NCBI GenBank assembly: GCA_016199265.1
Contig: JACQGX010000088.1
Coordinates: forward strand, 1 to 63,135
DNA from: Chloroflexota bacterium
Lineage (GTDB): Bacteria > Chloroflexota > UBA11872 > UBA12225
DNA length: 63,135 nt
Reading direction: 5' to 3'
Position numbers and translations under genes: made by a program. The notes beneath the pieces are model-generated. The model saw only the letters and a program-made list of their open reading frames with translations, had not been told where the DNA came from and made no database searches. Within the stretch, counting starts at the first letter, position 1, and every line of letters starts with the position of its first letter. Below, piece by piece: positions 2,291-62,345 of the stretch.

Positions 2291-2383
2291 ACTCGGTCCG
2301 CCGTCCCAGGTCCAAAGTCCCAGGTCGGCCGCCAGATGCCACGTTCTTTGGACATTGGACTTGCGACTTTGGACCTGGTTTAG
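2287..2383. repeat. Hairpin repeat element, GTCCAAAG flavour, bounded by CTAAAC...GTTTAG
   Basis: The left arm reads ctaaactcggtcc...caggtccaaagtcccaggtc and the right arm reads ctttggacattggacttgcgactttggacctggtttag. The cbiQ stop TAA (2288-2290) lies within the terminal CTAAAC. Confidence 0.8.
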
Positions 2384-2394
2384 GAGCGGGGTGA

Positions 2395-5567: not shown

Positions 5568-5573
5568 GGTCAG

Positions 5574-21093: not shown

Positions 21094-21519
21094 GTGCTGC
21101 CTTCTCATCACGCCGGCCTTGCCGCCGCCGCGACGGTGCCGCTGGCGTGGCGCGGCTGGAATGGCCCGGCGCGGCTGGAGTTCTTTGCCGCGGCGGTGCT
21201 GATCGACGCCGACCACTACCTTTCTTACGTCTGGCGGACCGGCGACCTCTCGCTGTGGAACGCCTACTGGTGGCACCGACGGCGCACTCACGCGTCCCCG
21301 AGGCGCTGGAAGCTGCACTGGCCCCATCTGGGTTTCCAGCCGACGCGACCGCTGCACGTACCGGCGGCGCTGCTCTTGTTCCTGCTCGTCTCGTGGCGGT
21401 GGCGCCGGCTGCGACCGCTGGCGTGGGGCCTCATTTTCCACCGCGCGCTCGACGCGCTGTGGGAGGCGCTGGCGCAACCCGGCCATCTCCCTTGCCCGGA
21501 CGTGAAACGTGAAACGTGA
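21094..21519 (+). CDS. Putative membrane-bound metal-dependent hydrolase (YdjM/DUF457-like)
   Basis: The protein has an N-terminal PSHHAGLAA segment, an LIDADHYLSY motif and hydrophobic helices. The start is uncertain, and the C-terminus runs into a repeat arm. Confidence 0.4.
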   Translation: MLPSHHAGLAAAATVPLAWRGWNGPARLEFFAAAVLIDADHYLSYVWRTGDLSLWNAYWWHRRRTHASPRRWKLHWPHLGFQPTRPLHVPAALLLFLLVSWRWRRLRPLAWGLIFHRALDALWEALAQPGHLPCPDVKRET

Positions 21520-21606
21520 GCTTCCGAGCAGATCCCCATGGTAAGGGGTGCCATTTTGGTACAAGCGCCGCCTTTTGGCTCACGTTTCACGCGTCACGTT
21601 TCACGT
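21500..21606. repeat. Hairpin repeat element, CGTGAAACG flavour
   Basis: The left arm acgtgaaacgtgaaacgtgagc (21500-21521) pairs with gctcacgtttcacgcgtcacgtttcacgt (21578-21606). Both convergent flanking genes end inside the arms. Confidence 0.85.
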
Positions 21607-22704
21607 GCCGAAGCTGATCCCCACGCTGCGGGCAGCTTGCACCATTTCGCCGTTGGGGTCGACCAGCTTCGGGCGGGCGATCGCATCGGCGATGGAGACG
21701 TCGACGATGTCCCGGCCGCGGAGGGCGACCATCCGACCGTACCCGCCACGGGCGATGAGATGGACAGCCGCCGCACCGAAGCGTGTACCCAGCGTACGGT
21801 CGAATGGGCTGGGCGAGCCGCCGCGCTGGAGGTGGCCGAGCACAACCGCGCGCGTTTCGGCGCCGGTGGCCAGCGCGATGTCTTCGGCTACCTGGATACA
21901 GATGCCGCCCAGGCGCCGCGCGCCAGGCGCGCCGTGCCGTTCTTCCTGGTATACCTGCGCGCCACCTTCAGGCACGGCGCCTTCGGACACGACGACGATC
22001 GAGAACTTCCGCCCGGCGCGGGCGCGGTTGATCAGCGCCGACGCCACCGCATCGATCCGGTACGGAATCTCGGGGATAAGAATGACGTCGGCCCCACCGG
22101 CGATACCCGCCTCCAACGCGATCCAACCCGCATCGCGCCCCATCACCTCGACGACCATGACACGATTGTGGCTTTCCGCCGTCGTGTGCAGCCGGTCAAT
22201 CGCATCGGTGGCGACGTGCAGCGCCGAGTCGTAACCGAACGTCACGTCGGTCGCCGCCAGATCGTTGTCGATCGTCTTCGGCACGCCGACGAGATTGATG
22301 CCGAGCTCGAGCAGTTGCGAGGCGATACGCATGCTGCCATCGCCGCCGATGGTGACCAGCGCGTCGATCTCCAGCTCCCGTATGCGGTTGACGACCTCCG
22401 GCGATCGATCGATTGGTTCACCCGTTTCGGTCGGCATAGCGAACGGATTGCCGCGATTGCTCGTGCCAAGAATCGTGCCTCCCAAGGGCAGGATGCCGCG
22501 TACGCTTTCGGCCGTCAGCGGCCGCACGCGCGCGCCGTAACGTCCCAAGAGCCCGTCGAAGCCGCTTTCGATCCCCAGTACTTCCCAGCCGTAGACACCG
22601 ATCGCCGTCTTGACGACCGCCCGAATGACCGCGTTCAAGCCGGGACAATCGCCGCCGCCCGTCGATACGGCGATCCGCCGCACATCGCCTGTCGATGCTC
22701 CCAT
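21601..22704 (-). CDS. pfkA: 6-phosphofructokinase, ATP-type signature (Gly104-type GGDGS)
   Basis: The protein begins MGASTGDVRRIAVSTGGGDCPGLNAVIRAVV and contains TIGGDGSMRIA and GVPKTIDNDL. The ATG at 22704 follows AGGGGAGGA. Confidence 0.9.
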   Translation of the reverse strand: MGASTGDVRRIAVSTGGGDCPGLNAVIRAVVKTAIGVYGWEVLGIESGFDGLLGRYGARVRPLTAESVRGILPLGGTILGTSNRGNPFAMPTETGEPIDRSPEVVNRIRELEIDALVTIGGDGSMRIASQLLELGINLVGVPKTIDNDLAATDVTFGYDSALHVATDAIDRLHTTAESHNRVMVVEVMGRDAGWIALEAGIAGGADVILIPEIPYRIDAVASALINRARAGRKFSIVVVSEGAVPEGGAQVYQEERHGAPGARRLGGICIQVAEDIALATGAETRAVVLGHLQRGGSPSPFDRTLGTRFGAAAVHLIARGGYGRMVALRGRDIVDVSIADAIARPKLVDPNGEMVQAARSVGISFGT

Positions 22705-22738: not shown

Positions 22739-22843
22739 GGTCGAACGACGAACGACGAGCGACGAACGGCCAATGTTGTTGCTGACGAGACAGCCTTCTT
22801 CGTCGTCCGTCGTTCGGCCTTCGTCTTCGATGTTCCTTCGTCT
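22739..22843. repeat. Hairpin repeat element, CGACGAACG flavour, in the divergent pfkA/ROK promoter region
   Basis: The left arm ggtcgaacgacgaacgacgagcgacgaacggcc pairs with cttcttcgtcgtccgtcgttcggccttcgtcttcg. Confidence 0.8.
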
Positions 22844-23805: not shown

Positions 23806-23856
23806 ACTTTGAGAGAAGAGCGAATCTCGTTCACTAGAAAGCCAGTTTACAGGCCC

Positions 23857-27323: not shown

Positions 27324-27429
27324 CGTTACCAGATTCTACTCTGGTCCCCCTTGCTCCTGTGCGCGCGGCAGAAGCCGGTATGCTCACGCCATACCCTGCT
27401 CTCCCCATTCTAGAGGGTCAGGGTGAGAG

Positions 27430-27526
27430 CTAAAGCAAGTCCAAAGTCGAAAGTCCAAAGTCCAAAGCACGTCGCATCTTGTAGGCTACCTTGGACTTTG
27501 GACCTTGGGCTCTGGACTGAGTTTAC
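27430..27526. repeat. Hairpin repeat element, GTCCAAAG flavour
   Basis: The left arm ctaaagcaagtccaaagtcgaaagtccaaagtccaaagc pairs with ccttggactttggaccttgggctctggactgagtttac. Confidence 0.8.
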
Positions 27527-27528
27527 GC

Positions 27529-28486: not shown

Positions 28487-28591
28487 CAGCAGTCAGCGAT
28501 CAGCGGTCAGCGGTCAGCTATCAGTTCCCGGCCCGGCCCCACCGAGTGCTACACCTCACCGGCTGCTGACTGCTGACCGCTGATCGCTGAC
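28487..28591. repeat. Hairpin repeat element, CAGCGGT flavour
   Basis: The left arm gcagcagtcagcgatcagcggtcagcggtcagctatcag pairs with ggctgctgactgctgaccgctgatcgctgac. It starts right after the J-protein stop codon. Confidence 0.85.
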
Positions 28592-28741
28592 AACTAGACT
28601 AGTCGCCCATGGGGTGGCGGAGAACCGGGTACGATTCGGTACAGTGCAACGACGCAAGCGTCTCGGGGGAAGGGGTCTGGTCTTATTTCCGCAGGCGCCG
28701 ACTTCACGTCAGAACACATCCACAAGGAGACTTCCAGCCGC

Positions 28742-28867
28742 ATGATGTCGGATCCGCGCACGGTCGAGCGCCTGCTGGGCTACATGACTAAGGCAGTCTG
28801 GCTCATCATGGCCTACAGCTTTGGAACCATGATTGGCCGATTGATCCTGCTGGCCCAGGGCAACTAA
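28742..28867 (+). CDS. Possible 41-aa small membrane protein
   Basis: The ORF encodes MMSDPRTVERLLGYMTKAVWLIMAYSFGTMIGRLILLAQGN. AAGGAGA lies 11 nt upstream. The stop TAA sits in the terminus of the next repeat. This ORF is not in the supplied track because it is shorter than 60 aa. Confidence 0.25.
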   Translation: MMSDPRTVERLLGYMTKAVWLIMAYSFGTMIGRLILLAQGN

Positions 28868-28939
28868 CCCAAGTGCAAAATGCAGAGTGCAAAGTGTAAG
28901 GTGAGGGTGACTGCAGGCTGCACCTTGGCGTTGGTTTAG
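28864..28939. repeat. Hairpin repeat element, GTGCAAAG flavour
   Basis: The sequence is ctaacccaagtgcaaaatgcagagtgcaaagtgtaaggtgagggtgactgcaggctgcaccttggcgttggtttag. Confidence 0.85.
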
Positions 28940-28975: not shown

Positions 28976-29012
28976 AAGGGCGGGTCAAAGACCCGCCCTT
29001 ATCATTTGGTTT
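28976..29012. terminator. GC-rich stem-loop between convergent genes (candidate intrinsic terminator)
   Basis: The stem aagggcgggtc (28976-28986) pairs with gacccgccctt (28990-29000) around a 3-nt loop. On the plus strand it is followed by atcatttggttt. It lies 10 nt beyond the stop of the minus-strand receiver gene. Confidence 0.5.
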
Positions 29013-29421
29013 AGGCGGGCACCGGCTCCGACCGCGCCACCGCCTGCTTGCACACGTCGAGCAGTTCTTCGAGGTCGAAGGGCTTGGCCAGAAGCGCGTC
29101 TACGTGCATCTGCGCGGCTGTCAGCGATAGGTCGAGCCGGGCGCTGCAGAGGACGATCGGGGCGTGCGGCGCCGGCCGCCGCCGGTAGGCATCGATAAGG
29201 TGGACGCCGTCGACGTTGGGCATCGCGACGTCTACGAGGATCGCCGCCGGCCGCACCACGGCCAACAGTTCGAGCGCTTCGCGGCCGTCGGCAGCGGTGA
29301 CGACGGCGTAGCCTTCGTCTTCCAGCGCCTGGCGGATGAAGTCACGGATGGCTTTGTCGTCGTCCGCAACCAGGATCGGCTGAATCGGCCCATTCCGGTT
29401 CACCCACGTTCCCCTTTCCAA
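29011..29421 (-). CDS. Stand-alone response-regulator receiver (CheY-like)
   Basis: Receiver motifs are present: ILVADDDKAIRDFI...AAILVDVAMPNVDG...LAKPFDLEELL. No output domain is present. Confidence 0.85.
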   Translation of the reverse strand: MERGTWVNRNGPIQPILVADDDKAIRDFIRQALEDEGYAVVTAADGREALELLAVVRPAAILVDVAMPNVDGVHLIDAYRRRPAPHAPIVLCSARLDLSLTAAQMHVDALLAKPFDLEELLDVCKQAVARSEPVPA

Positions 29422-32567: not shown

Positions 32568-32752
32568 GGCCACGAATCGCCGCCTGTCCCACCATACCAC
32601 AGTTGCGGCCCCTACCCCTAACCCCTCCCCGATGCGGGGAGTCGGTCCGCGGCGCGGCGCTCGACCGGTCCGCCTCTCCGACACGAAGAGGGGCTAGCGG
32701 GTGAGGTCCGCCTGCAGGGCGCAGGCCAAAGTGCCGGCGGCGTCGAATCTTT

Positions 32753-32814
32753 GTAGGGGCGTATCGACATACGCCCAGGGGCGGCGGTCGGGCGCATCTC
32801 GCTACGCCCCTACA
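32753..32814. repeat. Palindromic GTAGGGGCGTA...TACGCCCCTAC element (copy 2, inverted relative to copy 1)
   Basis: The sequence is gtaggggcgtatcgacatacgcccaggggcggcggtcgggcgcatctcgctacgcccctaca. It differs at only a few positions from the reverse complement of 17895-17956. Confidence 0.85.
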
Positions 32815-32899
32815 GCCAGTGGCGGTCCCCGGAACTTCTGCCTGCACCCCTCCTGCACTTCCGCTTGCGTGTGAATTTGGCATCCAGTATGATCGCCCT

Positions 32900-34438
32900 A
32901 TGCGGAAACGGATAAAGAGCGACCCTCTTCCGGTCGAGCGAGAGCTGGGCGAGGCGTGGCGGGTCGCGCCGGCGGCGGGGACGCTTACGACGGTGGAGGG
33001 CGAAAAGGTTCGGGTGGTGTACCCGGGCCGGCCGAACGCGGCCGCCGGTCCCGATTTCTTGGATGCGGTGCTCGAGACCGGCGACGGGGAGGTGCGCGGC
33101 GCCGTCGAGCTTCACCGCCGGACGAGCGACTGGGAACGGCATGGGCATGGCGCCGATCCGCGATACAGCGGCGTCGTGCTGCACGTCGTCGGCCGGCACG
33201 ACGGCGCCGCCAGCCGGCCGCCGGGCGGCGCCCAGTTGCCGTTGCTCGAGCTCGTCGGGGGAAGCTGGACCGGCGGGGAGGACGCCGCGCCGCCGTTGCC
33301 TTGCGCCGCCAACATCACCACCGGGCGCGATCCGCTGCCTCTCCTCGAAGCGGCGGGCGATGCGCGCTTCGAGGCCGGCATCCGGCGAATCCAGGAATTA
33401 CAGAACAGTTTCGCTCGACCATCTGGCGCAGCAGGCGCTGCCGCAGCCGACTGGGACCAGTTGGCCTACGTGCTGCTGGCCGAGGCGCTGGGATACAGCC
33501 AGAATACGACGGCGCTGCACGAGCTCGCGGCCGCCGTGCCGCTCGACGAGGTGCGCCGCTGCGCCGCCGGCGCGCAGCGGCAGACGGCCGGCACGCGGGC
33601 CGAAGCGCTGCTGCTTGGTGCGGCCGGCTTACTCCCGTCTCAGCGGCACCTGCCGGCAGCCCGATGCCGTGGTGCCTACGTCGAGGCGCTCGAGCGGGCG
33701 TGGCAGGTCGCCGGCCGAGCACCGGCCTTGCGGTCATATCGCTGGGACTTCGCCCACGTGCGGCCCGAAAACGCGCCGGTGCGGCGCGTCGTTGCGCTCG
33801 CCAAACTGGCGCTGGAGTGGCCGCGAGCGGGCGTGTTCGCCGCGATTGCCGAGGTCATTGGTGCACCCGACCGGCCCAGCCAGAGCAGCGGTGGGCGCGG
33901 CGGCAGGCGAAATACGCCAGCCGAGGAACCAAGACCCCACGAGAGAGCCAAGCTGCACGACAGCCGGCGGCCCGATGCCGGTGCCCGCGTGCTGCTCGCC
34001 GCCAACCGGAACCTGGCGCGCCGCGTGACGTTGCCGTGCCCGGAAGGGTACTGGGCCGAGCACTGGGACTTCGGCGTGCCGGTCAAGCAACCGGGCACCG
34101 AAGCGACCGCGCTGATCGGTCACTCGCGGGCGGCCGACGCGGTGGTCAATGTGCTCCTCCCGCTCGCCGTCGCGATGGCCGTCTCCGGCGGCGACGCCGC
34201 GCTCCACGCCCGCGCCGTCGCCGCCTACCGCACCCACCCGCTCCTCACCGAAAATTGGATCACCCGCCTGGTGCGCGAGCGTACCGGCCTCAGCGCCGCA
34301 CGCGGTGATCGCGTCGCCGGCGCGCGCGCCCAGCAAGGCCTGATCGCCATCTACGAAGGCCCCTGCCGGGAACTGCGGTGCGGCGAGTGCCCGTTGGGAG
34401 TGCAGAGCGAAAAGTGCAAAATGAAAAATGCAAAATGA
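32900..34438 (+). CDS. DUF2851-family protein
   Basis: The sequence VVYPGRPNAAAGPDFLDAVLETGDGEVRGAVELHRRTSDWERHGHGADPRYSGVVLHVV matches the remembered DUF2851 N-terminal signature. The C-terminus runs into a repeat arm. Confidence 0.65.
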   Translation: MRKRIKSDPLPVERELGEAWRVAPAAGTLTTVEGEKVRVVYPGRPNAAAGPDFLDAVLETGDGEVRGAVELHRRTSDWERHGHGADPRYSGVVLHVVGRHDGAASRPPGGAQLPLLELVGGSWTGGEDAAPPLPCAANITTGRDPLPLLEAAGDARFEAGIRRIQELQNSFARPSGAAGAAAADWDQLAYVLLAEALGYSQNTTALHELAAAVPLDEVRRCAAGAQRQTAGTRAEALLLGAAGLLPSQRHLPAARCRGAYVEALERAWQVAGRAPALRSYRWDFAHVRPENAPVRRVVALAKLALEWPRAGVFAAIAEVIGAPDRPSQSSGGRGGRRNTPAEEPRPHERAKLHDSRRPDAGARVLLAANRNLARRVTLPCPEGYWAEHWDFGVPVKQPGTEATALIGHSRAADAVVNVLLPLAVAMAVSGGDAALHARAVAAYRTHPLLTENWITRLVRERTGLSAARGDRVAGARAQQGLIAIYEGPCRELRCGECPLGVQSEKCKMKNAK

Positions 34439-34519
34439 AAAATGCGATATTCGAAGCCAACCAGTCGTCTCATCTGGGGCGCCTCGTTCACTTTGTACTT
34501 TGCATTTTGCACTTTTCAC
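34400..34519. repeat. Hairpin repeat element, GTGCAAAA/ATGAAAA flavour
   Basis: The left arm gtgcagagcgaaaagtgcaaaatgaaaaatgcaaaatgaaaaatgc pairs with cactttgtactttgcattttgcacttttcac. The stops of both convergent genes lie inside the arms. Confidence 0.85.
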
Positions 34520-35301
34520 TGGCGCGTGGCGCCCGCCAGCGCCGGCCCTACCTGCTGCGCCAGGCGCTCGAGGTAGCGCAGCTCGGCGTCGGTGTAGGCT
34601 TTGCCTTTAGGGCGGCGGGCCAGCACGAGGAGGCCGACGAGGCGTTGGCGGTGACGCAGCGTCACCGCCACGCCTGCGCCGCGATTAGCGAGCGCCGCCA
34701 GCGGCAGCAGAGCCACCGGCACGTCGGAGAGCTCGCGCCAGCGCTCGACCGGTATCGCGCGCGGGTACAAACCAAGCAGGCGAGGCAGCACGTCGTCGAG
34801 CGGGAATTCGGGAGGCGCGCGATCGTCGAGCTGCGTCGCCGGCACATTCGCCGTGGCGTCGGCCGGCCGCTGCCGCGCCAGCGCCCAGTCACCCGCGCTG
34901 GCGGCCGGCACGAGGCGCCCGCCCCGCGGGACGAGCACGGCGGCCGCGGGGGCGTTGAGCCGGCGGAGCGACTCCTGTGCCACGGCGCTGCCGAGCTCCT
35001 CGGCGGTCGCCGGCAAGCGATGCTGAACGATGGCCGTAATGCGCTCGCGCCGTACGCGCGCAACGGCCATCACGAGGGCGACGGTACCGAGCGCCACGGC
35101 AAAGAGCAACGCGATGGTCAGCGCGACGGCGCTTCCCGGCTGCGCGACGAAGAACGCGATCAGCAAGGCACCGGCGGCGCCGAGTGAGGCGATGGTACCC
35201 CACGGCACCGTCATCGCACGCGGCGCATCCGGTTTCCCGAGTGCTCCGGGCGCATCGCCTTCGTCGGGCCGCTCGCCGATTGTCGGCGGGAGATCGCTCA
35301 T
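34516..35301 (-). CDS. Membrane-anchored GAF-like domain protein
   Basis: Two N-terminal TM helices are present. The C-terminal segment RLVGLLVLARRPKGKAYTDAELRYLERLAQQVGPAL is a typical GAF end. Confidence 0.5.
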   Translation of the reverse strand: MSDLPPTIGERPDEGDAPGALGKPDAPRAMTVPWGTIASLGAAGALLIAFFVAQPGSAVALTIALLFAVALGTVALVMAVARVRRERITAIVQHRLPATAEELGSAVAQESLRRLNAPAAAVLVPRGGRLVPAASAGDWALARQRPADATANVPATQLDDRAPPEFPLDDVLPRLLGLYPRAIPVERWRELSDVPVALLPLAALANRGAGVAVTLRHRQRLVGLLVLARRPKGKAYTDAELRYLERLAQQVGPALAGATRQ

Positions 35302-36665: not shown

Positions 36666-36717
36666 GTCAGCGGTCGGTGGTTGGGTAGCTGACCGCTGAA
36701 AGCTGACCGCTGACCGC
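36666..36717. repeat. Hairpin repeat, CAGCGGT flavour
   Basis: The sequence is gtcagcggtcggtggttgggtagctgaccgctgaaagctgaccgctgaccgc. A half-copy (gcggtcagcggtcagc) lies at about 39031-39046. Confidence 0.75.
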
Positions 36718-36730
36718 CGATGAATGGCGA

Positions 36731-37258
36731 TTATGTCGATGTAGGCAGGGAGATGGGGTCACGCTGCAGCAGCTCGATAAGGACGCCGTGGGCACTTTTC
36801 GGATGGAGGAAGGCGACGAGACCGCCGTGGCCGCGGCGTGGCGCTTTGTCGATGGGTTCGAATCCGTCGCGTTCGAGGCGCGCCAGTTCGGCGGTGATGT
36901 CGTCGACGGCGAAGCAGACGTGGTGCATCCCTTCACCGCGGCGCGTAAGAAAACGCCCCACCGACGACTCGCCGCCAAGCGGCTCGAGCAGCTCTAGCCT
37001 GGCCGAGGGCGCAGCCGTGGGACGGGCGAAGCCCTCGCGGGACGGCTCAGTATCAGCGCCGGATTGGGCAGGCAAATGCTTCGCCGCTGCGGACCGCGTT
37101 CCGATCCATCCTCCTGCCGGCACAAAGCAGACGCGGACGCCCTGCGCCGCCAGGTGCTCGACGTCGGTCGACGCGTGGCCGAGCAGCCGGCGGAACGTCG
37201 CCGCCGCGCCTTCTACATCGGCCACGGCGATCCCCACGTGATCGACACCCAGAATCAT
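36731..37258 (-). CDS. mce: Methylmalonyl-CoA epimerase (VOC/glyoxalase fold) with a ~36-aa insertion
   Basis: Epimerase segments are present: MILGVDHVGIAVADVEGAAATF...RLELLEPLGGESSVGRFLTRRGEGMHHVCFAVDDI...AFLHPKSAHGVLIELLQ. Confidence 0.8.
   Translation of the reverse strand: MILGVDHVGIAVADVEGAAATFRRLLGHASTDVEHLAAQGVRVCFVPAGGWIGTRSAAAKHLPAQSGADTEPSREGFARPTAAPSARLELLEPLGGESSVGRFLTRRGEGMHHVCFAVDDITAELARLERDGFEPIDKAPRRGHGGLVAFLHPKSAHGVLIELLQRDPISLPTST
37001..37108. repeat. Intragenic 108-nt insertion in the epimerase gene (origin unclear)
   Basis: The insertion encodes GWIGTRSAAAKHLPAQSGADTEPSREGFARPTAAPS between VCFVPAG and ARLELLEP. It contains a cgagggc...gccctcg inverted repeat. It has only a weak (~17 nt) resemblance to 54746-54767. 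Confidence 0.4.
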
Positions 37259-37447: not shown

Positions 37448-39028
37448 TTACCCCCGATACTCGCCGAACACCGTCCGCATCGCGCCGGCCATCTCGCCGA
37501 CGGTGGCACGGGCGCGGGCGCATTCGAGGAGCGGCGGGAGGACGTTTTCCGTCGCGGCGGCGGCGGCGCGCAACCGGTCGAGCGCAGCCGTCACGCGCCC
37601 GCCATCGCGCGAGCGGCGCAGTTGCTCGAGGCGGCGGATCTGGCGCTCGCGCACGGCCGGATCGACTTTGAGGATCTTCATCGGGGCGCTCTCGCCGCCG
37701 GCCGCCGTTTGGAAGCGATTGACGCCGACGATCGTCTTGTCGCCGCTCTCGACCGCGCGCTGATAGACGTACGCACTTTCTTCGATCCGGCGCGCGTAGT
37801 ACCCACTTTCGACCGCCACCAATCCGCCGCCGATCTGCTCGATCTCGGCCAGCAGTTCTTCGGTTCTGCCCTCAAGCTCGTCGGTAAAGCGCTCGACGAG
37901 ATACGAGCCGGCGAGCGGGTCGGCGCTGTCGGGGACGCCGCTCTCGTAGGCGATCACCTGCTGGGTGCGCAACGCGAGCTGCGCCGTTGCCTCGGTCGGC
38001 AGCGCCAGCGCCTCGTCGAGCGCGTTGCAGTGGAGGCTTTGCGCTCCGCCAAGCACCGCCGCCAGCGCCTGGAGCGTCACACGCACGACGTTGTTCTGCG
38101 GCTGCTGCGCCGCGAGCGTGCTGCCGGCGGTCTGCGTGTGGAAGCGCAGCTTCCACGAGTTGGGGTCTTTGGCGCCGAACCGGTCGCGCGCGAGTCGCGC
38201 CCAGATGCGCCGCGCCGCGCGAAACTTGGCGATCTCTTCAAAGAGGTTGTTGTGGCACGCGAAGAAGAACGAGAGCCGCGGCGCGAAAGCGTCGATCTCG
38301 AGCCCCGCGTCGAGCGTGGCGGTCGTGTAGGTGATGGCGTTGGCAAAGGTGAAGGCGAGCTCCTGCGCCGCGGTGCAACCGGCCTCGCGCAGATGGTAGC
38401 CGCTGATGCTGATCGGGTTCCAGCGAGGCAGATGCGCGGCGCAGAAGGCGATGCTGTCGGTCACCAACCGCAGGCTCGGCCGGGGCGGGTAGACGTACGT
38501 CCCGCGGGCAACGTACTCCTTGAGGATGTCGTTCTGCGTCGTCCCGGAGAGCTTCTCCGGAGGGACGCCCTGCTCTTCGGCCGCGACGACGTAGAGCGCG
38601 AGCAGGATCGCGGCGGTCGCGTTGATCGTCATCGACGTGCTCACCCGGTCGAGGGGGATGCCGTCGAGGAGCTGCCGCATGTCCTCGACGCTGCAGATCG
38701 AGACGCCGACGCGGCCGACCTCCCCCTCGGTGAGCGGGTGATCGGCGTCATAGCCGAGCTGCGTGGGCAGATCAAATGCGACCGACAACCCCGTCTGCCC
38801 CTGCTCGAGCAGGTAGCGGTAGCGCCGGTTCGATTCCTCGGCGGTCGCGTAACCGCCGTACTGGCGCATCGTCCACAACCGGCCGCGATACATCGTGGGA
38901 TAGATCCCACGAGCGAAGGGGAATTCCCCTGGATCGCCAAGCGCGGCCTCATACGACCAACCGGCGATGTCATCCGGGCGGTACACGGGTTTCACTGGAA
39001 TCCCGCTGTCGGTGAGGCGTTCTGCCAT
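37448..39028 (-). CDS. Methylmalonyl-CoA mutase catalytic (large) subunit, without a B12-binding domain
   Basis: Substrate-barrel motifs are present: [32 protein letters not shown]...[18 protein letters not shown]...TNAATA. The protein ends before any DxHxxG B12 domain. Confidence 0.9.
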
Positions 39029-39045
39029 GAGCGGTCAGCGGTCAG

Positions 39046-39615
39046 CTACCCCAAGACCGTGATCTTCCTGATCTTATCGCCGATCTTGATGCCGTTGACG
39101 ACGTCCATGCCGTCGGAGACCTGGCCGAAGTTGGTGTAGGTCTTGTTCAGCCATTCGGCCGGCTTGGTGCAGATGAAGAACTGCGAATCGTTGTTGATGC
39201 GGATGTCCTGGCCGCGCGCCACACCGACGGCGCCGACGACAAACGGCTTGTCGTTGAGCTCACTGGGCATCGTGCCGCCGCCGGTGCCGTTGCCGCGCGG
39301 GTCACCGCCCTGCACCACCCAGTCCTCGACGCGGTGGAAGGTCAAGCCGTTGTAGTAGCCCTGGCTCGCCTTCTGCTCGAAATTCTGCACCGTCTTGGGC
39401 GCGGCGTCGGGGAAGAGCTGGATCGTAAACGAGCCGCCCTTCTCGAGCTCGACGACGGCGCGCTTGCCTGAGCCCTTACCGTTCTGGGCGGCGCTACTCT
39501 TCGATTGACCGGGCAGTCCGGGTATGGCGCACGCCGCCGCCAGGGCCGCCAGGGCGCCCGACCCGGTGAGCGCGCCCGCGTGAATTGCTTGGAAAACGAA
39601 TGAACGCCGAAGCAT
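39046..39615 (-). CDS. Secreted cyclophilin-type peptidyl-prolyl isomerase
   Basis: A signal peptide is followed by FTIQLFPDAAPKTVQNFEQKASQGYYNGLTFHRV...GGDP.GNGTGG...SQFFI. Confidence 0.85.
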   Translation of the reverse strand: MLRRSFVFQAIHAGALTGSGALAALAAACAIPGLPGQSKSSAAQNGKGSGKRAVVELEKGGSFTIQLFPDAAPKTVQNFEQKASQGYYNGLTFHRVEDWVVQGGDPRGNGTGGGTMPSELNDKPFVVGAVGVARGQDIRINNDSQFFICTKPAEWLNKTYTNFGQVSDGMDVVNGIKIGDKIRKITVLG

Positions 39616-41547: not shown

Positions 41548-43107
41548 ATGACAAACGCCGATGTTCCCGACAAGATTCGTGAGCTGCGCGAGCGCAAAGC
41601 CCAAGCGCGCTTCGGCGGCGGATCGAAGCGCATCGAACAGCAACACATCCGCGGCAAATTGACCGCGCGCGAGCGGCTCGACCTCCTGCTCGACGCGGGC
41701 TCCTTCGAGGAGACCGACATGCTCGTCACCCACCGCGCGACCGACTTCGGCCTGGAGGCGCAACGTTACCTGGGCGACGGCGTCGTGACCGGTTGGGGGC
41801 GCATCGACGGGCGGCCAGTGTACGTGTTCTCGCAGGACTTCACCGTCTTCGGCGGCTCGCTTTCGGAGGCCGTCGCCGAAAAGGTCTGCAAGATCATGGA
41901 CATGGCGATGAAGAACGGCGCCCCGGTGATTGGGCTCAACGATTCGGGCGGCGCGCGCATCCAGGAGGGCGTCGTCTCACTCGGCGGGTACGCCGACATC
42001 TTCCTGCGCAACACGCTCGCCTCGGGCGTCATCCCGCAGATTTCGGCCATTCTCGGACCATGTGCCGGCGGCGCGGTCTACTCGCCGGCGATCACCGACT
42101 TCGTGCTGATGGTCGAGCGGACGAGCTACATGTTCGTCACCGGACCCAACATCGTGAAGTCGGTGACACACGAGGACGTCGACTTCGAACAGTTGGGCGG
42201 CGCCGAGGTCCACAACACCACGAGTGGCGTGGCGCACTTCCTGGCGGCGACCGAGCCCGAGTGCCTCGATCTGATCCGCCGTCTCATGTCATACCTGCCC
42301 TCGAACAACGTCGACGATCCGCCGTACGTCGACACCGGCGACTTGCCGCTGCGCGAAGACGCCGAGCTCGTGACGCTCGTCCCGGAGCAGCCGAACAAGC
42401 CATACGACATGCGCGACGTGATCCGGCGCATCGTCGACCGCGACACCTTCCTCGAGGTGCAGGCGCTCTACGCGCAGAACATCATCGTCGGCTTCGCCCG
42501 GCTCAACGGCCATTCGGCCGGCATCGTCGCGCAGCAACCCGCCGTGCTGGCAGGCGTGCTCGACATCAACTCGTCGGACAAAGCGGCGCGCTTCGTGCGC
42601 TTTTGCGACTGCTTCAATATCCCCATCTTGACGTTTGTCGACGTGCCGGGCTTTCTGCCGGGGGTAGGACAGGAACACGGCGGCATCATCCGCCACGGGG
42701 CCAAGCTGCTCTACGCCTACTGCGAGGCGACGGTGCCCAAGCTCACGGTGATCACGCGCAAGGCGTACGGCGGCGCCTATGACGTCATGAGCTCGAAGCA
42801 CATCCGCGGCGACGTCAACTACGCCTGGCCAACCGCCGAGATCGCGGTGATGGGCGCCGAAGGCGCCGTGCCGCTCATCTTCCGCGACGAGATCGCCCAA
42901 TCGCCCGACCGCGAAGCAACCCGCACCCGCCTGGTTGAGGAGTATCGCCAGAAGTTCGCCAACCCATACATCGCGGCCGCGCGCGGTTACGTCGACGACA
43001 TCATCGAACCGCGCCAGACTCGGCGCAAGCTGATCTCTGCGCTGGAGATGCTGAAGAACAAGCGCGACTCCAACCCACCCAAGAAACACGGCAACATACC
43101 CTTGTAG
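41548..43107 (+). CDS. pccB: Propionyl-CoA carboxylase beta chain / acyl-CoA carboxyltransferase
   Basis: Family segments are present: [26 protein letters not shown]...GGSLSEA...[11 protein letters not shown]...AYGGAYDVM. Confidence 0.9.
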
Positions 43108-43114
43108 ACAGGCA

Positions 43115-44728
43115 ATGTTCAAGCGGGTGCTCGTCGCCAATCGGGGCGAAATCGCGGTACGGATCATTCGGGCCATTCACGAGCTTGGCGCCGAAGCCGT
43201 CGCCGTCTATTCCGAGGCCGATCGCGCGGCGCTGCACGTCCGGCTGGCCGATTGCGCGTATCCGATTGGTCCCGCGCCGGCTGCGCAGAGCTATCTGAAC
43301 GTGCCGGCGATCCTGGCGGCTGCGCGCCGGGGTGGTGCCGAGGCGGTCCATCCGGGGTACGGCTTCTTGTCGGAAAACCCGGCGTTCGCGCGAGCGTGCG
43401 CCGATGCCGGGATCGTCTTCGTCGGGCCGTCGCCGGAGGCGATGGCGCTGATGGGCGACAAGGTGGAAGCGCGCCGGGCCGCCGTGGCGGCCGGTGTGCC
43501 GGTGGTGCCGGGCACGACCGAGCCGGTGCGCGACGACGCGAGCGCGGCGGCGGCCGCCACGGACATTGGCTATCCCTTGCTCATCAAGGCGGCGGCCGGA
43601 GGTGGTGGCAAAGGCATGCGCGCGGTGCGTACGCCCGAGGACCTGCGGCCGGCGCTGGCCCAGGCACGCAGCGAGGCGGTCGCGTCCTTTGGCGACGGCA
43701 GCGTCTATCTCGAGAAGCTGATCGTGCGGCCCCGCCACATCGAGGTGCAGCTCTTCGGCAACGGAAAGGGCCGAGTCGTCCACCTTGGCGAGCGCGAGTG
43801 CAGCCTGCAGCGGCGCTACCAGAAGGTCGTCGAGGAGGCCCCCGCGCCGCACCTGCCCGACGACGTGCGGCGCCGGCTCTGGGCGGCGGCCGTATCGGCT
43901 GCCGAGGCGGTGAAGTACGCCGGCGCCGGCACGATCGAGTTCCTCTTCGAGCCGTCGACGCAGCAGGTCCATTTCCTAGAGATGAACGCCCGCCTCCAGG
44001 TGGAGCATCCCGTCACCGAAGCCGTGACCGGCGTCGACCTGGTCAAAGCGCAGTTCCGCCTCGCGGCCGGCGCATCGCTCGAGGCGGCGTTGGGGAGCGC
44101 GTCCGAAGTCCAAAGTCCAAAGCATGCCCTGAGCGCAGCCGAAGGGTCCAAAGTCGGTGCCCGGCGCGATGACGACCTTGGGCTTTGGACTCCGGACGTT
44201 GGACTCCATGCTATCGAGGCGCGCATCTACGCCGAGGACCCGGACAACAACTGGTTCCCGTCGACCGGTACGCTGCGCCTCGTGCGCGAGCCGGGCGGCC
44301 CGGGCATCCGCGTCGACAGCGGGTGCGAATCCGGGCAAGAGGTCACCGTCCACTACGACCCGCTTCTGGCGAAGCTGATCGCCTGGGGGAGCACGCGGGC
44401 AGAGGCACTCGACCGCCTGCGGCGCGCGGTCGACGAATACGTCCTGACCGGCGTGCGCACGACGCTGCCGTTCCATCGCTGGCTGGTGCGAGACGAAGCG
44501 TTTCTTGGCGCCGAGCTCTCGACCGGCTTCATTGCCGAGCGCTGGCCGGCGGCGCCGTCCGGCGCGGCCGTATCCGGCGAGCGCGTGCGCGCCGCGGCGC
44601 TCGTCGCCGCTCACGCGTTTGCCGCGCGCCGGCACGCGGCCGCGCCGACGATTCAAACGGATGCGGCGGCGCCCGGCTCGACCGGTAGTGAGTGGCGCCG
44701 TGTGGCCCGTCGGGAAGCGCTGCGGTGA
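43115..44728 (+). CDS. accC: Biotin carboxylase subunit of acyl-CoA carboxylase, carrying an in-frame hairpin-repeat insertion
   Basis: The protein begins MFKRVLVANRGEIAVRIIRA and contains GYGFLSENP, KAAAGGGGKGMR, EMNARLQVEHPVTE and EARIYAEDP. Confidence 0.9.
   Translation: MFKRVLVANRGEIAVRIIRAIHELGAEAVAVYSEADRAALHVRLADCAYPIGPAPAAQSYLNVPAILAAARRGGAEAVHPGYGFLSENPAFARACADAGIVFVGPSPEAMALMGDKVEARRAAVAAGVPVVPGTTEPVRDDASAAAAATDIGYPLLIKAAAGGGGKGMRAVRTPEDLRPALAQARSEAVASFGDGSVYLEKLIVRPRHIEVQLFGNGKGRVVHLGERECSLQRRYQKVVEEAPAPHLPDDVRRRLWAAAVSAAEAVKYAGAGTIEFLFEPSTQQVHFLEMNARLQVEHPVTEAVTGVDLVKAQFRLAAGASLEAALGSASEVQSPKHALSAAEGSKVGARRDDDLGLWTPDVGLHAIEARIYAEDPDNNWFPSTGTLRLVREPGGPGIRVDSGCESGQEVTVHYDPLLAKLIAWGSTRAEALDRLRRAVDEYVLTGVRTTLPFHRWLVRDEAFLGAELSTGFIAERWPAAPSGAAVSGERVRAAALVAAHAFAARRHAAAPTIQTDAAAPGSTGSEWRRVARREALR
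44101..44205. repeat. Intragenic GTCCAAAG-flavour hairpin element inside accC (105 nt, in frame)
   Basis: The left arm gtccgaagtccaaagtccaaagc pairs with gctttggactccggacgttggac. The element is translated as SEVQSPKHALSAAEGSKVGARRDDDLGLWTPDVG between conserved AAG... and HAIEARIYAEDP. Confidence 0.85.
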
Positions 44729-45264
44729 AAGTGGCGGTGCGCGTCCTCGATCGGCAACTTGTGATCGAGCTACCGGACGAACCGGGTACGCCGGGTGCGC
44801 CGGATGCGCCAGCGCTGATCGATCGAATACCTATAGCAGGTGACTTGGTGACGGTGCGCCCGGGGCTCTACAGCCTGGTGGTCGACGGCCGCTCGTACGA
44901 AGTCGCCGTCGAGGCGTTGCCGGACGATGCCCGGTCACTGGTGGTGACCGTCGACGGGACGGCGCTGCCGGTCGAGGTCGAAGACGAGCGGCAGCGTGCG
45001 CGTCGTGCCGCCGAGCAGGCACGCGGCGTGACCGCCGGCCGGATATCCACGGCAACCATCGTCGCACCGATGCCGGGGCGCGTCGTCTCGGTGCTCGCTG
45101 CGCCGGGCGATACCGTCGAGCGCGGGCAAACGATCGTGACCCTGGAAGCGATGAAGATGGAGAGCAGCCTCACGGCGCCGCACACCGGTACGGTGACCGA
45201 GGTGCTCGTCACCGCCGGCCAGACGGTGCAGCAACGCCAGCCGCTGGTACGGATCGAAGGCTAG
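44725..45264 (+). CDS. Biotin carboxyl carrier protein (biotinyl domain)
   Basis: The biotinylation motif is LEAMKMES. The GTG at 44725 overlaps the accC stop (GTGA). Confidence 0.8.
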   Translation: MKVAVRVLDRQLVIELPDEPGTPGAPDAPALIDRIPIAGDLVTVRPGLYSLVVDGRSYEVAVEALPDDARSLVVTVDGTALPVEVEDERQRARRAAEQARGVTAGRISTATIVAPMPGRVVSVLAAPGDTVERGQTIVTLEAMKMESSLTAPHTGTVTEVLVTAGQTVQQRQPLVRIEG

Positions 45265-48261: not shown

Positions 48262-49250
48262 ATGCCACTGGTTCCTATGAAGATCGTCCTGGACGAGGCC
48301 GAGCGCGGCGGCTACGGCGTCGGCGCGTTCAACGTCAACAACATGGAACAGATCCAGGCGATCATGCGTGCGGCGAGCGAAGTGCGGTCGCCGGTGATCA
48401 TCCAGGCGTCGCGCGGCGCGCTGCGCTACACCAACATGGTCTACCTGCGCCACCTCATGCATGCGGCCGTCGAGGACAATCGCGATATCAAGATCGTGAT
48501 GCACCTCGACCACGGCAACGACCTCGACATCGTCAAGCAGGCGATCGACCTCGGCTTCACCTCGGTGATGATCGACGGCTCGCTCGAGCCCGACGGGAAG
48601 ACACCGCGGTCGTTTGAGAGTAACGTCGAGATGACGCGCAAAGCGGTCGAGATCGCGCACCCGTACGGCGTGACCGTCGAGGGCGAGCTCGGCACGCTGG
48701 GCGGCATCGAAGAGCACGTCCAGGCCAGCCGCGTTATCTTGACCAATCCGGAAGAGGCGGTGGAGTTCGTCAAAGCCACCGGCGTCGACGCGCTCGCGGT
48801 CGCGATCGGCACCTCCCACGGCGCGTACAAGTTCAAACAGACGCCGATGCTGGCGCTCGACCGCGTCGAGAAGATCCATCGGCTCGTGCCTCACGTACGC
48901 CTGGTGATGCACGGCTCGTCGAGCGTGCCGCAGGAGCTGATCGCAGAGATCAATCGGTACGGCGGCAGCATGCCGAACGCGATGGGCGTCCCCGTCGAGC
49001 AGATCCAGGACGGCATCCGGCGCGGCATCCGCAAGATCAACGTCGACACCGACACGCGCTTGGCCGCAACGGCGACGATCCGACGCATCTTCCACGAGGA
49101 GCCGGCCGTCTTCGACCCGCGAGAGTACCTCGGTCCGGCGCGCGACGCGATCTACCGCGTGGTCAAGGCGCGTATGGAGGCGTTCGGCTCGGCCGGGCAC
49201 AACGACGACTACGCACCGACGACGCTGGAGGAGGCGAGACGCTTGTACAA

Positions 49251-49254
<4 letters not shown>
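48262..49254 (+). CDS. fba: Class II fructose-1,6-bisphosphate aldolase
   Basis: Family segments are present: GYGVGAFNVNNMEQIQAIMRAASEVRSPVIIQASRGA...HLDHG...GTSHGAYKF. The ATG at 48262 follows GAGAGGA. Confidence 0.9.
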
Positions 49255-50379
<1,125 letters not shown>

Positions 50380-50645
50380 CGTCGTTTGCCTGGAATGTAC
50401 GCACTCTTCGTGAACGCTCTCCGGCAGCGTACACGGCGGCGTAGCGGTCATACGCCCGTATAGAGTTTCTACCCATCCTATGCGCTTTGTCGAGTTCGAC
50501 CACCTGCGGTACCGGGTCTCTTTGGATACGCTGGACACGCTTCGTCCGTCACGCCGCGCTGCCTTCGTCCCCTGCACGTCACGTGCCGGGGGCGGCCGTC
50601 CCATTTCCCCGGCGTCCGACGTACAAGATACGATGAGGGACGGCG

Positions 50646-55102: not shown

Positions 55103-55387
55103 GTGACTCTTGAGGGCCTCCGAGCGCGACGCGAGGAGATCCTGCGGATTGCGGCAGCGCACGGGGCGCGAAACGTCCGTGTCTTTGGCTCGGTCGCCAG
55201 AGGACAAGCTCGGCCCGACAGCGACGTGGACTTCCTGGTGGAGCTCGAACCAAATCGCACGGTGCTCGACCTGAGCAGCCTCATCCTCGACCTGCAAGCA
55301 GCCTTGCGGCGCAAGGTTGACGTAGTGGAACTGGGACGCACGTCGCCTGCCGCCGAGCTTATCGAGCGTGAAGCGGTCCCACTATGA
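55103..55387 (+). CDS. Nucleotidyltransferase (MntA-like antitoxin-type) with no HEPN partner
   Basis: The motif is RNVRVFGSVARGQARPDSDVDFLVEL (GSxxRG...DxD). The GTG at 55103 gives the typical ~94 aa. The stop overlaps the ABC gene ATG (ATGA at 55384). Confidence 0.7.
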   Translation: MTLEGLRARREEILRIAAAHGARNVRVFGSVARGQARPDSDVDFLVELEPNRTVLDLSSLILDLQAALRRKVDVVELGRTSPAAELIEREAVPL

Positions 55388-57314
55388 CCGAAGACCAACC
55401 CCGGCTGCAGGCGCTGGCGGACTATGGCTGGCTGCTGTGGCTCGTGGTGCGCGCCGCGCCGGGGGCATGCGCCCTCTGGACGGCCACGACGCTTGGCCAG
55501 GCCCTGCTTGTGCCGGCGCAGCTCTGGCTCACCAAGACGCTGGTCGACTCGCTTCCTTCGAGCAACAGAACTACTACGACCAGCTCGATCGCGTCCTCTC
55601 CGGCACCGAGACGCGCTGGTCGGGCATGGTTGGGCATTTCCTCGGTCTGGTGCGCGAGGCGGTGCGGTTCACCAGCTACGCCGTGGCGCTCACCAGCGTG
55701 GCGCCGGTCCTGCTGTTGGTCGCCATCGCCGGCGTTGCGCCTGGTGCCGCGGTCTTCTTGGGGGGTGGCCTGAGCTACTACGGTCTGCTCCGGCAGCAGA
55801 CCCGCGAGTCTCGCCTCGGCGACTACAACGCCAGCCTGCTCACCGAGCGGGGGTTCGCCAAGGAGGTGCGCCTGTACGGGCTGGCCGGCTACGCGCTGGA
55901 CGGCTGGCACCGGCTCTACTGGCAAACGCGTGACGAGCGCCGCCGCCTGGCGCAGCGCCAGGCCATCAAGGCGCGGGCGGTCATTCTCGCGGCGACGATG
56001 GCGAACATGGGGGCGCTCGTTTGGGTGGTAACGGCCGGGCGAATCCATGTCACGGCCGGCGGCTATGCGCTGCTCTTTCAGGCGCTCAACGGCGTGATCC
56101 AGACGCTGTACTTCCTGGCGAACACGCTCCAGACGCTCGGTACCCAGGCGGGTCACGCCAGTGCCGTCCGTGCCTTCTTTCGGCTGCCCTCGGAGACCGC
56201 TTCCTCGAACACGGCCTCGTCGGACACGGCCTCGTCGGACACGGCCTCGCCGGACACGGCCTCGTCGGACACGGCCTCGTCGGACACGGCCTCGTCAGAG
56301 ACTTCCTCGTCAGAGACTTCCTCGTCGGACACGGCCTCGCCGGCGACCGCCAATGGAGGCAGCGAACGAGCGGGTCACGTGAGACAGGCGGGCGTGGCAC
56401 GTGTGGCAGGGCTGGGGGCGGCGGTGGTGGGAGCAGGCGTGGGCGAGGCGGGCGTGGCGTTCCCCCGTCCGCTGCGTCACTCGATCCGCTTCGAGGACGT
56501 GTGGTTTACCTACCCCGGCGCCAGTCAACCGGCGCTGTCGGGCGTGACGTGCGAGATCCGGGCGGGCGAAACGGTGGCGCTCGTCGGCGAGAACGGCGCC
56601 GGCAAGACCACGCTGGTCAAGCTCCTGCTCGGCCTGTACCAGCCGGATGCCGGACGGATCACGTTCGACGGGATCGACGCGCGCGAGATCGATCCCCAAG
56701 CGCTGCGCGCCGCGGCCTCCGCGGTGTTCCAGCAGTTCGTCCACTACCACCTGACCTTCCGCGAGAACGTCGCCCTCGGCCAGCCGGCGGGAGACGGCAT
56801 GGGCAGCGACGGCCCAATGACGAAGGCACCGGACCCGGCGCCGGACCCGGCACACGAGACTGCGCCCGGCTCGGCGCTCGTGGCCGCGATGGAGCGCGCG
56901 GTCGAGCGGGCCGTCGAGCAGGCGGGGGCCCAAGACATTGTGCGGGCGCTGCCGCAGGGCTACGACACGCTGCTCGGGCCGGACGTGGGCGGCGTGGACC
57001 TTTCCAGCGGCCAGTGGCAGCGGGTCGCCCTCGCCCGCGCCTTCTATCGCCCGGCCCAGGTGCTTGTGCTCGACGAACCGACCGCCGCGTTGGATCCTCT
57101 CGCGGAGCTGGCGGTGTTCGAGCGCTTCGCCGCGTTAGCCGCCGGCCGCACGGCCGTGCTGATCTCCCATCGCCTGGGCATGGTGCGGCTGGCCGGCCGC
57201 GTGATCGTCCTCGAGCAGGGGCGCGTGGCCGAGAGCGGCACGTACGAGTCGCTGCTCCGCAGCGGCGGCGCCTACGCCGCCCTGTTTACGGCGCAGGCGA
57301 GGTGGTACACGTGA
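55384..57314 (+). pseudogene. ABC exporter (fused TMD-NBD) with an N-terminal deletion/frameshift and a 15-nt tandem repeat in the linker
   Basis: The N-terminus (frame of 55384) reads ...AQLWLTKTLVDSL. The frame then shifts near 55545 into ...SFEQQNYYDQLDRV, which skips about 58 aa that are present in the paralog. The NBD motifs are intact: GENGAGKTT, LSSGQWQR and VLVLDEPTAALD. Confidence 0.7.
56196..56345 (+). repeat. About ten tandem copies of a 15-nt unit (ACGGCCTCGTCGGAC) encoding (TASSD)n
   Basis: Units are phased at 56196, 56211, 56226 ... 56331 with a few substitutions. They encode SSNTASSDTASSDTASPDTASSDTASSDTASSETSSSETSSSDTASP. Confidence 0.9.
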
Positions 57315-62162: not shown

Positions 62163-62200
62163 CGCTGGGAGAGCGAGGCACGGTGAGGACGAGACTGCCC

Positions 62201-62252
62201 AAGGACGATGGACGAACGACGACGGCGGCGTCGTCGTTCGTCCTTCGACCTT
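62201..62252. repeat. Hairpin repeat, CGACGAACG flavour
   Basis: The stem gacgaacgacgac pairs with gtcgtcgttcgtc around a short GC-rich loop. It lies 40 nt past the phosphoesterase stop. Confidence 0.8.
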
Positions 62253-62281
62253 GGTCGAGCGCCGGCACGACGTGACCGGCG

Positions 62282-62345
62282 CTCTAGACCAAAGCCACGG
62301 TGGTACCCACAGGCGTCCTCACTTTGCACCTTGCACTTGCTTTAG
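62282..62345. repeat. Hairpin repeat element, GTGCAAAG flavour (reverse orientation)
   Basis: The sequence is ctctagaccaaagccacggtggtacccacaggcgtcctcactttgcaccttgcacttgctttagg. This is the reverse complement of the consensus seen at 2842, 5574 and 28864. Confidence 0.8.

Follow-up and report, generated by a model that had tools for sequence, protein, structure and literature searches.

A heptamer-repeat hairpin lying in frame within a biotin carboxylase gene of a Chloroflexota bacterium

The carboxylase gene and its insert

The DNA analyzed here, a 63,135-nt stretch of contig JACQGX010000088.1 (assembly GCA_016199265.1) from a Chloroflexota bacterium and hereafter termed the window, harbors a biotin carboxylase gene whose open reading frame (ORF) runs through a hairpin built of inverted heptamer arrays. 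All statements on the repeats of the source genome rest on these 63 kb. The gene, the insert, and the parts of the hairpin (the latter given without strand) are as follows:

43115..44728, + strand: biotin carboxylase subunit of an acyl-CoA carboxylase, 537 aa; continuous, intact ORF and host gene of the insert
44108..44200, + strand: 31 codons beyond the canonical 7-residue loop (aa 332-362, VQSPKHALSAAEGSKVGARRDDDLGLWTPDV), delimited by the loop lengths of 120 homologues and by codon comparison with the empty site of the relative L168
44100..44123: left arm, CGTCCGAAGTCCAAAGTCCAAAGC, with ~3 heptamers in tandem (GTCCGAA GTCCAAA GTCCAAA G)
44124..44177: central part (loop) of the element, with a third GTCCAAAG at 44146-44153
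44178..44205: right arm, TTGGGCTTTGGACTCCGGACGTTGGACT, reverse-complement heptamers of the TTTGGAC type

The element at 44100-44205 is composed of two inverted arms of tandem GTCCAAA/G heptamers with a centre of 54-58 nt between them, and the arms can be paired in two registers: 44101-44123 with 44182-44204 (23 nt, 83% complementary), and 44100-44120 with 44178-44198 (21 nt, 90% complementary). As RNA, positions 44085-44215 fold at -60.3 kcal/mol (z = -2.9 against dinucleotide shuffles). Tandem Repeats Finder reports a period of 7 at 44101-44122 (3.1 copies, 93% matches), the period-7 self-match of the arm is 0.88, and the right arm additionally contains a 14-nt direct repeat (GGGCTTTGGACTCC / GGACGTTGGACTCC), i.e., a tandem duplication.

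The arm sequence is strongly enriched in the window. The 15-mer GTCCAAAGTCCAAAG, with at most 2 mismatches, occurs 14 times against 0.02 expected, and its matches are confined to 2303-2374, 27439-27510, and 44101-44197, save for a lone one at 2858 (GTGCAAAGTGCAAAG, a variant of GTGCAAAG); the exact 8-mer GTCCAAAG occurs 12 times against 0.67 expected. Between the left arm and the intergenic copy at 27451-27469, 19 of 19 positions are identical (AAGTCCAAAGTCCAAAGCA), and this identity reaches 3 bases past the array into the loop. For the 54-nt loop itself, blastn returned no significant match elsewhere in the window. The arms, the fold, the enrichment of GTCCAAAGTCCAAAG, and the continuous ORF bear out the initial annotation, which had described a hairpin of a repeat family in frame within a conserved carboxylase. 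Its designation as a mobile element is unproven, as only the arms and the arm-to-loop junction are common to other copies.

The host protein has complete matches to three Pfam domains: Biotin_carb_N (residues 1-110; profile positions 1-110 of 110), CPSase_L_D2 (115-323; 1-209 of 211), and Biotin_carb_C (368-474; 1-107 of 108). The insert occupies the gap between the latter two (323-368). Biotin carboxylases in the PDB match the protein at E ~1e-140 in two blocks, with residues 323-364 (42 residues) facing 11 residues (345-355) of the best structure, 9tps. In 81 of the 120 best homologues, exactly 7 residues separate the equivalents of positions 326 and 365, compared with 38 in the host protein. 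The preserved frame and the unusual length of this loop had been recognized before, with figures that need revision: the element had been given as 35 codons, while the peptide quoted for it has 34 residues and the excess is 31 codons, and the loop as ~44 residues against ~13 in E. coli AccC, while the comparison here is 38 against the canonical 7. Nine residues (K116, K158, H208, K237, E275, E289, N291, R293, and R370) are invariant in an alignment of 36 sequences (A1); they map to K116, K159, H209, K238, E276, E288, N290, R292, and R338 of the E. coli enzyme, which we take to be the catalytic set. The GC content at third codon positions (GC3) is 0.58 in the insert and 0.85 elsewhere in the gene.

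The AlphaFold2 model, for which the alignment served as input, has a mean predicted local distance difference test score (pLDDT) of 83 and a predicted template modeling score (pTM) of 0.81. Within the enzyme core, only residues 329-360 have a pLDDT below 50; this stretch has no secondary structure and sits between a helix (322-326) and a strand (365-372). The insert is thus predicted to be a disordered excursion at the junction of the ATP-grasp and C-terminal domains, an interdomain position compatible with a surface loop, and by the model would add ~31 disordered surface residues. Because the frame is open through the element, a ribosome would read through it, and we infer translation from frame conservation only; a trypsin digest of the translated insert region would be expected to give HALSAAEGSK and DDDLGLWTPDVGLHAIEAR.

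Read in any of the six frames, the GTCCAAA unit is free of stop codons. The same applies to all units of the clean hairpins in carboxylase loops of this clade (GTCCAAA, GACGAAG, and GTCCCAG), whereas four of the seven heptamer units of the window do carry a stop codon. Each copy of a 7-nt unit shifts the frame, yet the frame is open everywhere and the units are free of stops. A filter imposed by translation would yield such a pattern, which argues against removal, bypass, or pseudogenization.

The carboxylase gene is flanked in its operon by the genes of two partner subunits:

41548..43107, + strand: carboxyltransferase subunit of the PccB/MmdA type, 519 aa, operon gene 1 (Pfam Carboxyl_trans, 1.6e-202; NCBIfam mmdA subfamily, 831 bits)
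44692..45264, + strand: biotin carboxyl carrier protein, 190 aa, operon gene 3 (Pfam Biotin_lipoyl)

Upstream lie genes for HtrA, a cyclophilin, methylmalonyl-CoA mutase (MM_CoA_mutase), a Glyoxalase-fold epimerase, and MeaB, and the gene order around the operon is the same in relatives. Given the PccB/MmdA-type partner and the mutase, epimerase, and MeaB neighbors, the enzyme is most likely an acyl-CoA carboxylase with propionyl-CoA as the likeliest substrate; a dual acetyl/propionyl role is conceivable as well. The gene had initially been called the essential accC, a label which these neighbors do not support and which the corresponding equivalog model, TIGR00514, does not assign (553 bits, under its cut-off of 626.5, with the alignment split by the insert). 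The insert therefore has a consequence for annotation, in that it splits profile matches and pushes the protein below the curated accC cut-off. A gene for the biotin transporter BioY is present at 15392-16081, 26 kb upstream of this biotin-dependent carboxylase operon.

Heptamer hairpins elsewhere in the window

About 14 hairpins or arrays of like architecture occur in the 63 kb, with inverted arms of tandem 7-nt (in some cases 8-11 nt) units around loops of 4-67 nt. Their units include GTCCAAA/GTCCCAG, GTGCAAA, ACGTGAA, GGTCAGC, AGTAGGC, CGAACGA/GACGAAC, and GAAAAAT, and individual units recur at several loci (three for GTCCAAA, three for GTGCAAA, four for GGTCAGC). On a gene map built from GC3 and Pfam, every one of these hairpins except the carboxylase copy is intergenic, at 3' ends, between convergent gene ends, or in 5' leaders, as had been noted initially for the two siblings that head the following list:

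2296..2384: sibling hairpin of GTCCCAG/GTCCAAA units, between convergent gene ends at 2290 and 2395
27429..27527: sibling hairpin of GTCCAAA/GTCGAAA units, in a 5' leader directly upstream of a DnaJ-domain gene (ATG at 27529)
28488..28595: hairpin of GGTCAGC units, the longest example, with 31-nt arms and variant units in mirrored order
21496..21610: hairpin of ACGTGAA units, between convergent gene ends
22742..22823: hairpin of CGAACGA units, outside a phosphofructokinase gene, in its 5' leader
34409..34520: hairpin of GAAAAAT/GCAAAAT against CACTTTG units, between convergent gene ends
49250..49386: hairpin of AGTAGGC units, eight of them in the right arm; between convergent gene ends
62199..62254: hairpin of GACGAAC/TCGTCCT units, downstream of a gene ending at 62162

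Similar hairpins are also found at 36687-36720 and 39028-39046, between cistrons of the carboxylase and neighboring operons. The mirrored order of variant units at 28488-28595 indicates that the arms are true inverted copies and not independent arrays; a telomerase-like addition to both ends of a break was considered and rejected, since these mirrored units point to inverted copying. Across the whole window, Rfam models gave no match at or above the gathering score.

An outer motif, CCTAAACCAAGT, which contains TAA, has 31 matches in the window against 11.8 expected. With 0-2 mismatches, seven of these adjoin GTCCAAA or GTGCAAA arrays on their outer side:

2373-2384 (- strand)
2841-2852
5573-5584
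27429-27440
28863-28874
29004-29015 (- strand)
62335-62346 (- strand)

An eighth, at 39129, looks like a chance match. The motif may be the true terminus of one heptamer sub-family.

Three further arrays were examined as possible intragenic cases and set aside. The heptamer array at 22740-22765 lies in a 5' leader, since the phosphofructokinase gene really starts near 22703; this gene (21601-22703, - strand), with a hairpin in its leader, is one of two phosphofructokinase-family genes that lie 1 kb apart on opposite strands, the other being at 23809-25014 (+ strand). Two GC-rich tracts within genes, at 2031-2051 (three perfect copies of GGCGCCC, in a CbiQ-like gene) and 11211-11227 (2.4 copies of CGGTCGG, in a major facilitator superfamily gene), have no partner arm and cause no length anomaly relative to Pfam, and are probably ordinary slippage in GC-rich coding DNA.

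The same loop in related genomes

We compared 30 close-clade orthologues, with 77-93% core identity for the pairs computed. The corresponding DNA set comprises 11 orthologues (P0007 and P0019 are not among them); contig scans with the carboxylase protein yielded almost exclusively distant relatives (42-56% identity), apart from L001 (70%). The source names of the nearest homologues point to Chloroflexota. Where the sample type of the homologues from JGI was recognized, the source is presumably soil.

Loop lengths in the close clade range from 7 to 55 residues, with 7-9 residues in 7 of the 30 and 10-55 in the other 23, and the loop sequence is not conserved among them. The insert is hence absent from some close relatives, including L168/P0010 (an empty site with an 8-residue loop, LGARSEAAL), and the outgroup loops have 7 residues. 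A homologous segment conserved across the clade, which would have spoken for a non-repeat origin, was not seen at any point of the comparison. Close pairs differ just as much: P0015 and P0012 (93% core identity, 100% bootstrap) have loops of 55 and 20 residues, P0014 (27 residues) clusters with P0026 and P0030 (9 each, 82% bootstrap) and is joined by P0010 (8) at 64%, and P0020 and P0018 (100% bootstrap) both have loops of 26 residues with unrelated sequences. At the DNA level, 7 of the 10 insert-bearing loops consist of heptamer arrays with various units, and four of these seven form strong hairpins. The individual loops contain the following:

L163: ACTCCTA-type heptamer hairpin, z = -5.6
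L165: GACGAAG-type heptamer hairpin, z = -6.3
L170: TCGTCCT in four copies, left arm partial, z = -3.8
L167: GTCCCAG/GTCCCGG-type hairpin, z = -3.8
L171: a CAAGTAG and a CACTCAT array, not complementary to each other, z = +2.8
L001: small GC hairpin flanked by AATCCAA direct repeats
L161, L166, L164, and L169: GC-rich, with little periodicity

In L164 (8380-8460, the P0015 loop), a 39-nt tandem duplication encodes TGQEP(P)S(L/P)PAMEAR twice and accounts for much of the 55 residues. Several units recur across loci and genomes: GACGAAG is found in the L165 and L170 loops and in spacers of L164 and L169, and GTCCCAG in the L167 loop and at 2303 of the window. The two spacers lie between the cyclophilin and HtrA genes and have a GACGAAA/GACCAAA hairpin in common (L164 3596-3677, L169 6249-6311), of the same unit type as in the L165 and L170 loops.

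These loops bear on whether the hairpin might act on the mRNA, either by pausing translation at the domain boundary and so assisting co-translational folding, or by governing internal processing or stability and thereby the proportions of the operon products. A structured insert is found at this boundary in many orthologues, five of 11 loops fold significantly better than shuffles despite their unrelated sequences, and similar hairpins lie between cistrons, at 36687-36720 and 39028-39046 of the window and in L161, where a hairpin with tandem 11-mer arms (GGTGGTGATCA) occupies the carboxyltransferase-biotin carboxylase spacer (8438-8535). However, six of 11 loops (L161, L166, L164, L169, L001, and L171) fold no better than shuffles, L171 with its positive z among them, the insert is missing from seven close orthologues and all outgroups, and its length and its position in the loop vary, which makes such a role very unlikely.

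The frame is kept throughout. All fetched orthologue loops have lengths that are multiples of 3 nt and contain no stop codons, and 34 of 34 database orthologues are in frame, including 24 that bear inserts. A reversible frameshift switch (phase variation) of the carboxylase by heptamer slippage could be imagined, as 7 nt is not a multiple of 3 and each unit gained or lost shifts the frame, as L170 and L171 hold 4-4.5 perfect copies, and as heptanucleotide tracts are known contingency repeats in Haemophilus (PMC8262952). Yet the arms here have only ~3 imperfect copies each, most loops are degenerate, the gene is a core metabolic one in a free-living soil bacterium, and the database orthologues are uniformly in frame; we find this explanation hardly credible.

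Equally improbable in our estimation is that the insert lies outside any functional protein, whether because it is removed (as an intron, an intein, or by ribosomal bypass), because the gene is dead, or because the assembly is wrong. The first two of these had been raised initially. A repeat could in principle mislead an assembler, and there is no direct support for removal, pseudogene, or artefact. With 31 residues the insert is far too short for an intein and has no intein blocks, there is no Rfam intron family in the window, and removal would not call for the open, stop-free frame kept here and by all orthologues with an insert. The intact domains and catalytic residues and the GC3 of 0.85 speak against a dead gene, while comparable inserts in independent JGI, ENA, NCBI, and Logan assemblies, and the identity of P0003 in L161 and L162, speak against an artefact.

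Length variation in this cluster is also found in two neighboring genes. The methylmalonyl-CoA epimerase (gene 36731-37258, - strand) has a loop insert of ~34 residues (37001-37120) relative to L161 and L169, with a different insert at the same place in L167 (3728-3820). As a second heptamer case it was rejected, having no period-7 signal or hairpin (z = 0.3; -0.4 for the L167 insert); without periodicity, these inserts indicate that variable loops arise here without repeats too. The carboxyltransferases of L161 and L168 have an 11-residue Gly/Asp-rich insert (RTGDGDGGAAGQ / VEG-GALGPGGE; columns 334-344 of alignment A3), absent from the window and from three others, in a protein that is otherwise 85-87% identical.

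Origin of the insert and comparison with known repeats

Taken together, these observations make it likely that the insert derives from the heptamer-hairpin repeat family and is translated, tolerated, and near-neutral in a permissive loop of fast turnover. This corresponds to one option of the initial annotation, an enzyme that tolerates a translated palindrome, and fits the open frame, the intact domains and catalytic residues, the loop predicted to be disordered by AlphaFold2, and the 24 in-frame insert-bearing orthologues. The GTCCAAA copy would have arrived by copying from another GTCCAAA array, through template switching, recombination, or non-autonomous transposition; the identical passage from arm into loop and the presence of the same units at several loci and in several genomes favor such copying. 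Thereafter it would change by slippage and duplication, and probably by replacement, with selection removing only frameshifts and stops. It would have no function of its own and would persist since the loop is permissive and GTCCAAA is stop-free in all frames; neither sequence, length, nor fold is conserved and some relatives have short loops, which together argue against a peptide function and weaken the case for a role of the RNA hairpin.

The principal alternative is that nothing was imported. Slippage and fold-back template switching would have turned native codons into arrays and their inverted copy, and the likeness to the intergenic copies would reflect a genome-wide mutational preference for heptamers. 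At the outer ends of the arms, GCG TCC GAA (left) and GGA CTC CAT (right) could be native codons, as the empty site of L168 reads CGG TCT GAG ... CTC CAC there; the first heptamer, GTCCGAA, matches its TCT GAG, and the last unit holds the native GGA CTC CAT. The 14-nt tandem duplication within the right arm, the 4.5-copy CACTCAT array of L171 that runs into native CTT CAC, and the 39-nt duplication of L164 likewise favor growth in place, as do reports that many bacteria favor heptamers as their long repeat unit, for which polymerase slippage has been proposed (PMC4679880, PMC4692102). On the other hand, such growth does not predict the 19-mer shared with 27451-27469, including its 3 bases beyond the array, nor the recurrence of GACGAAG and GTCCCAG at several loci and genomes, and slippage alone cannot make inverted arms with mirrored variant units such as those at 28488-28595. 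We consider it unlikely as the whole account; the native-looking outer codons and the patterns in L171 and L164 suggest that growth in place also contributes.

Several results weigh against an imported, near-neutral insert of this family. The inverted arms are not flanked by a target-site duplication (the left flank ends in GGGGAGCGC and the right one begins with CATGCTATC), as MITEs (miniature transposable elements with inverted repeats) would be. The motif CCTAAACCAAGT is absent from the carboxylase copy, and a scan of ~50 window genes revealed no transposase, REP-associated tyrosine transposase (REP, repetitive extragenic palindrome), or reverse transcriptase. In ~200 kb of clade sequence, no other gene bears such an array insert. 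The array of L171 runs into native Leu-His codons and the outermost arm bases here are native-looking, such that part of the structure may have grown in place. The bootstrap support of the tree backbone is 1-27%, too low for a count of gains, and the lasting occupancy of one loop could go back to one ancient event, or to a function, instead of to recurrent neutral hits.

A bolder proposal is that the loop is a recurrent landing or regeneration site for heptamer hairpins with their own copying machinery, which writes, replaces, and erases inverted arrays at gene ends and in this loop. We hold this to be rather improbable. If true, it would mean a hypervariable surface peptide on a core enzyme and a free-living counterpart, of the type of the short tandemly repeated repetitive sequences (STRR), to the 'protein-coding palindromes' of Rickettsia, with a mechanism unlike known transposition.

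As to outcome, the nearest counterpart of this insert is found in the Rickettsia palindromic elements (RPEs; Ogata et al. 2000, 2002, summarized in PMC10969869). These are palindromes of 100-150 bp with a conserved full-length sequence and encoded peptide, found in many genes per genome of obligate intracellular Rickettsia. Like these, the present family is palindromic, has intergenic copies together with an in-frame copy that keeps the ORF of a housekeeping gene, and occupies a structurally permissive site (predicted here by AlphaFold2) of a host protein presumed to be functional (PMC10969869). In contrast to RPEs, what the copies have in common is confined to the heptamer arms and 3 loop bases, the loops and the orthologue inserts being unrelated; a single gene in 63 kb is affected, in a free-living, high-GC Chloroflexota bacterium, and the same loop holds different units in relatives.

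In its architecture, the family is closest to heptameric repeats, which comprise the STRR of Calothrix and Nostoc, GGGAATC in Xanthomonas, and GGGGAYT in Nostoc (PMC4692102), as well as TAACTGA in Beggiatoaceae (PMC4679880). Such families form arrays of 2-8 copies, with several units per genome, are dispersed and mostly intergenic near gene ends, and are scarce in coding sequence (PMC4692102, PMC4679880); occasional inverted pairs of arrays can form stem-loops (PMC4692102). The 7-nt tandem arrays described here (3.1 copies in the carboxylase) are similar in having several dispersed and mainly intergenic units. They differ in that the published families are mainly direct arrays of other units, while here the inverted pair is the default and one copy is translated. 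The cyanobacterial STRR1-3 units are CCCCAGT, TTGGTCA, and CAACAGT, and no unit seen here matches these. STRR heptamers, otherwise intergenic, are reportedly tolerated in an essential gene, that for the RNase P RNA of heterocyst-forming cyanobacteria, in a dispensable peripheral helix or loop that varies among strains (a case ascribed to Vioque, 1997); the gene product there is an RNA and hence without the reading-frame constraint of a carboxylase. The present hairpins belong to neither RPEs nor STRR, and we found no description of such hairpins in Chloroflexota in the literature.

As small palindromes between genes, at 3' ends, and between cistrons, these hairpins also resemble REP sequences and bacterial interspersed mosaic elements (BIMEs), as well as MITEs such as ERIC (enterobacterial repetitive intergenic consensus), Correia, and BOX. 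Some ERIC copies lie inside genes with an open frame (PMC10969869). In contrast to REP and BIME, which are imperfect palindromes of 20-40 nt outside genes, the carboxylase element has no conserved GTAG/CGTC head (its arms start AAGT/CGTCC) and no conserved core sequence, its arms are periodic, and it lies inside a gene.

Translated selfish or structural repeats in housekeeping enzymes have so far been documented mainly in Rickettsia; here they would occur in a soil Chloroflexota bacterium and take the form of inverted heptamer arrays. Furthermore, the process is seen in motion, with loops of 7-55 residues and several unrelated units in a set of orthologues whose cores share 77-93% identity. 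The loop may therefore be regarded as a natural experiment on how non-coding repeat DNA becomes new peptide, what the frame and stop filter lets pass, and how heptamers, whose over-representation in bacteria has long been recognized, arise and spread.

Two further repeats of the window are of other kinds. A palindrome family with the core CTGTAGGGGCGTAT, unrelated to the heptamer hairpins, occurs five times against 0.13 expected (sites at 17876-17974, 32751-32815, and 50450-50463); it includes an inverted repeat with a 37-nt stem at 17876-17974 and has a GTAG motif like the GTAG-superfamily REPs. In a gene for an ABC-transporter ATPase (55368-57314), a 15-nt tandem repeat, TCGGACACGGCCTCG (56190-56343; 10.3 copies with 87% matches), is located upstream of the ABC_tran domain and would encode a 5-residue peptide repeat.

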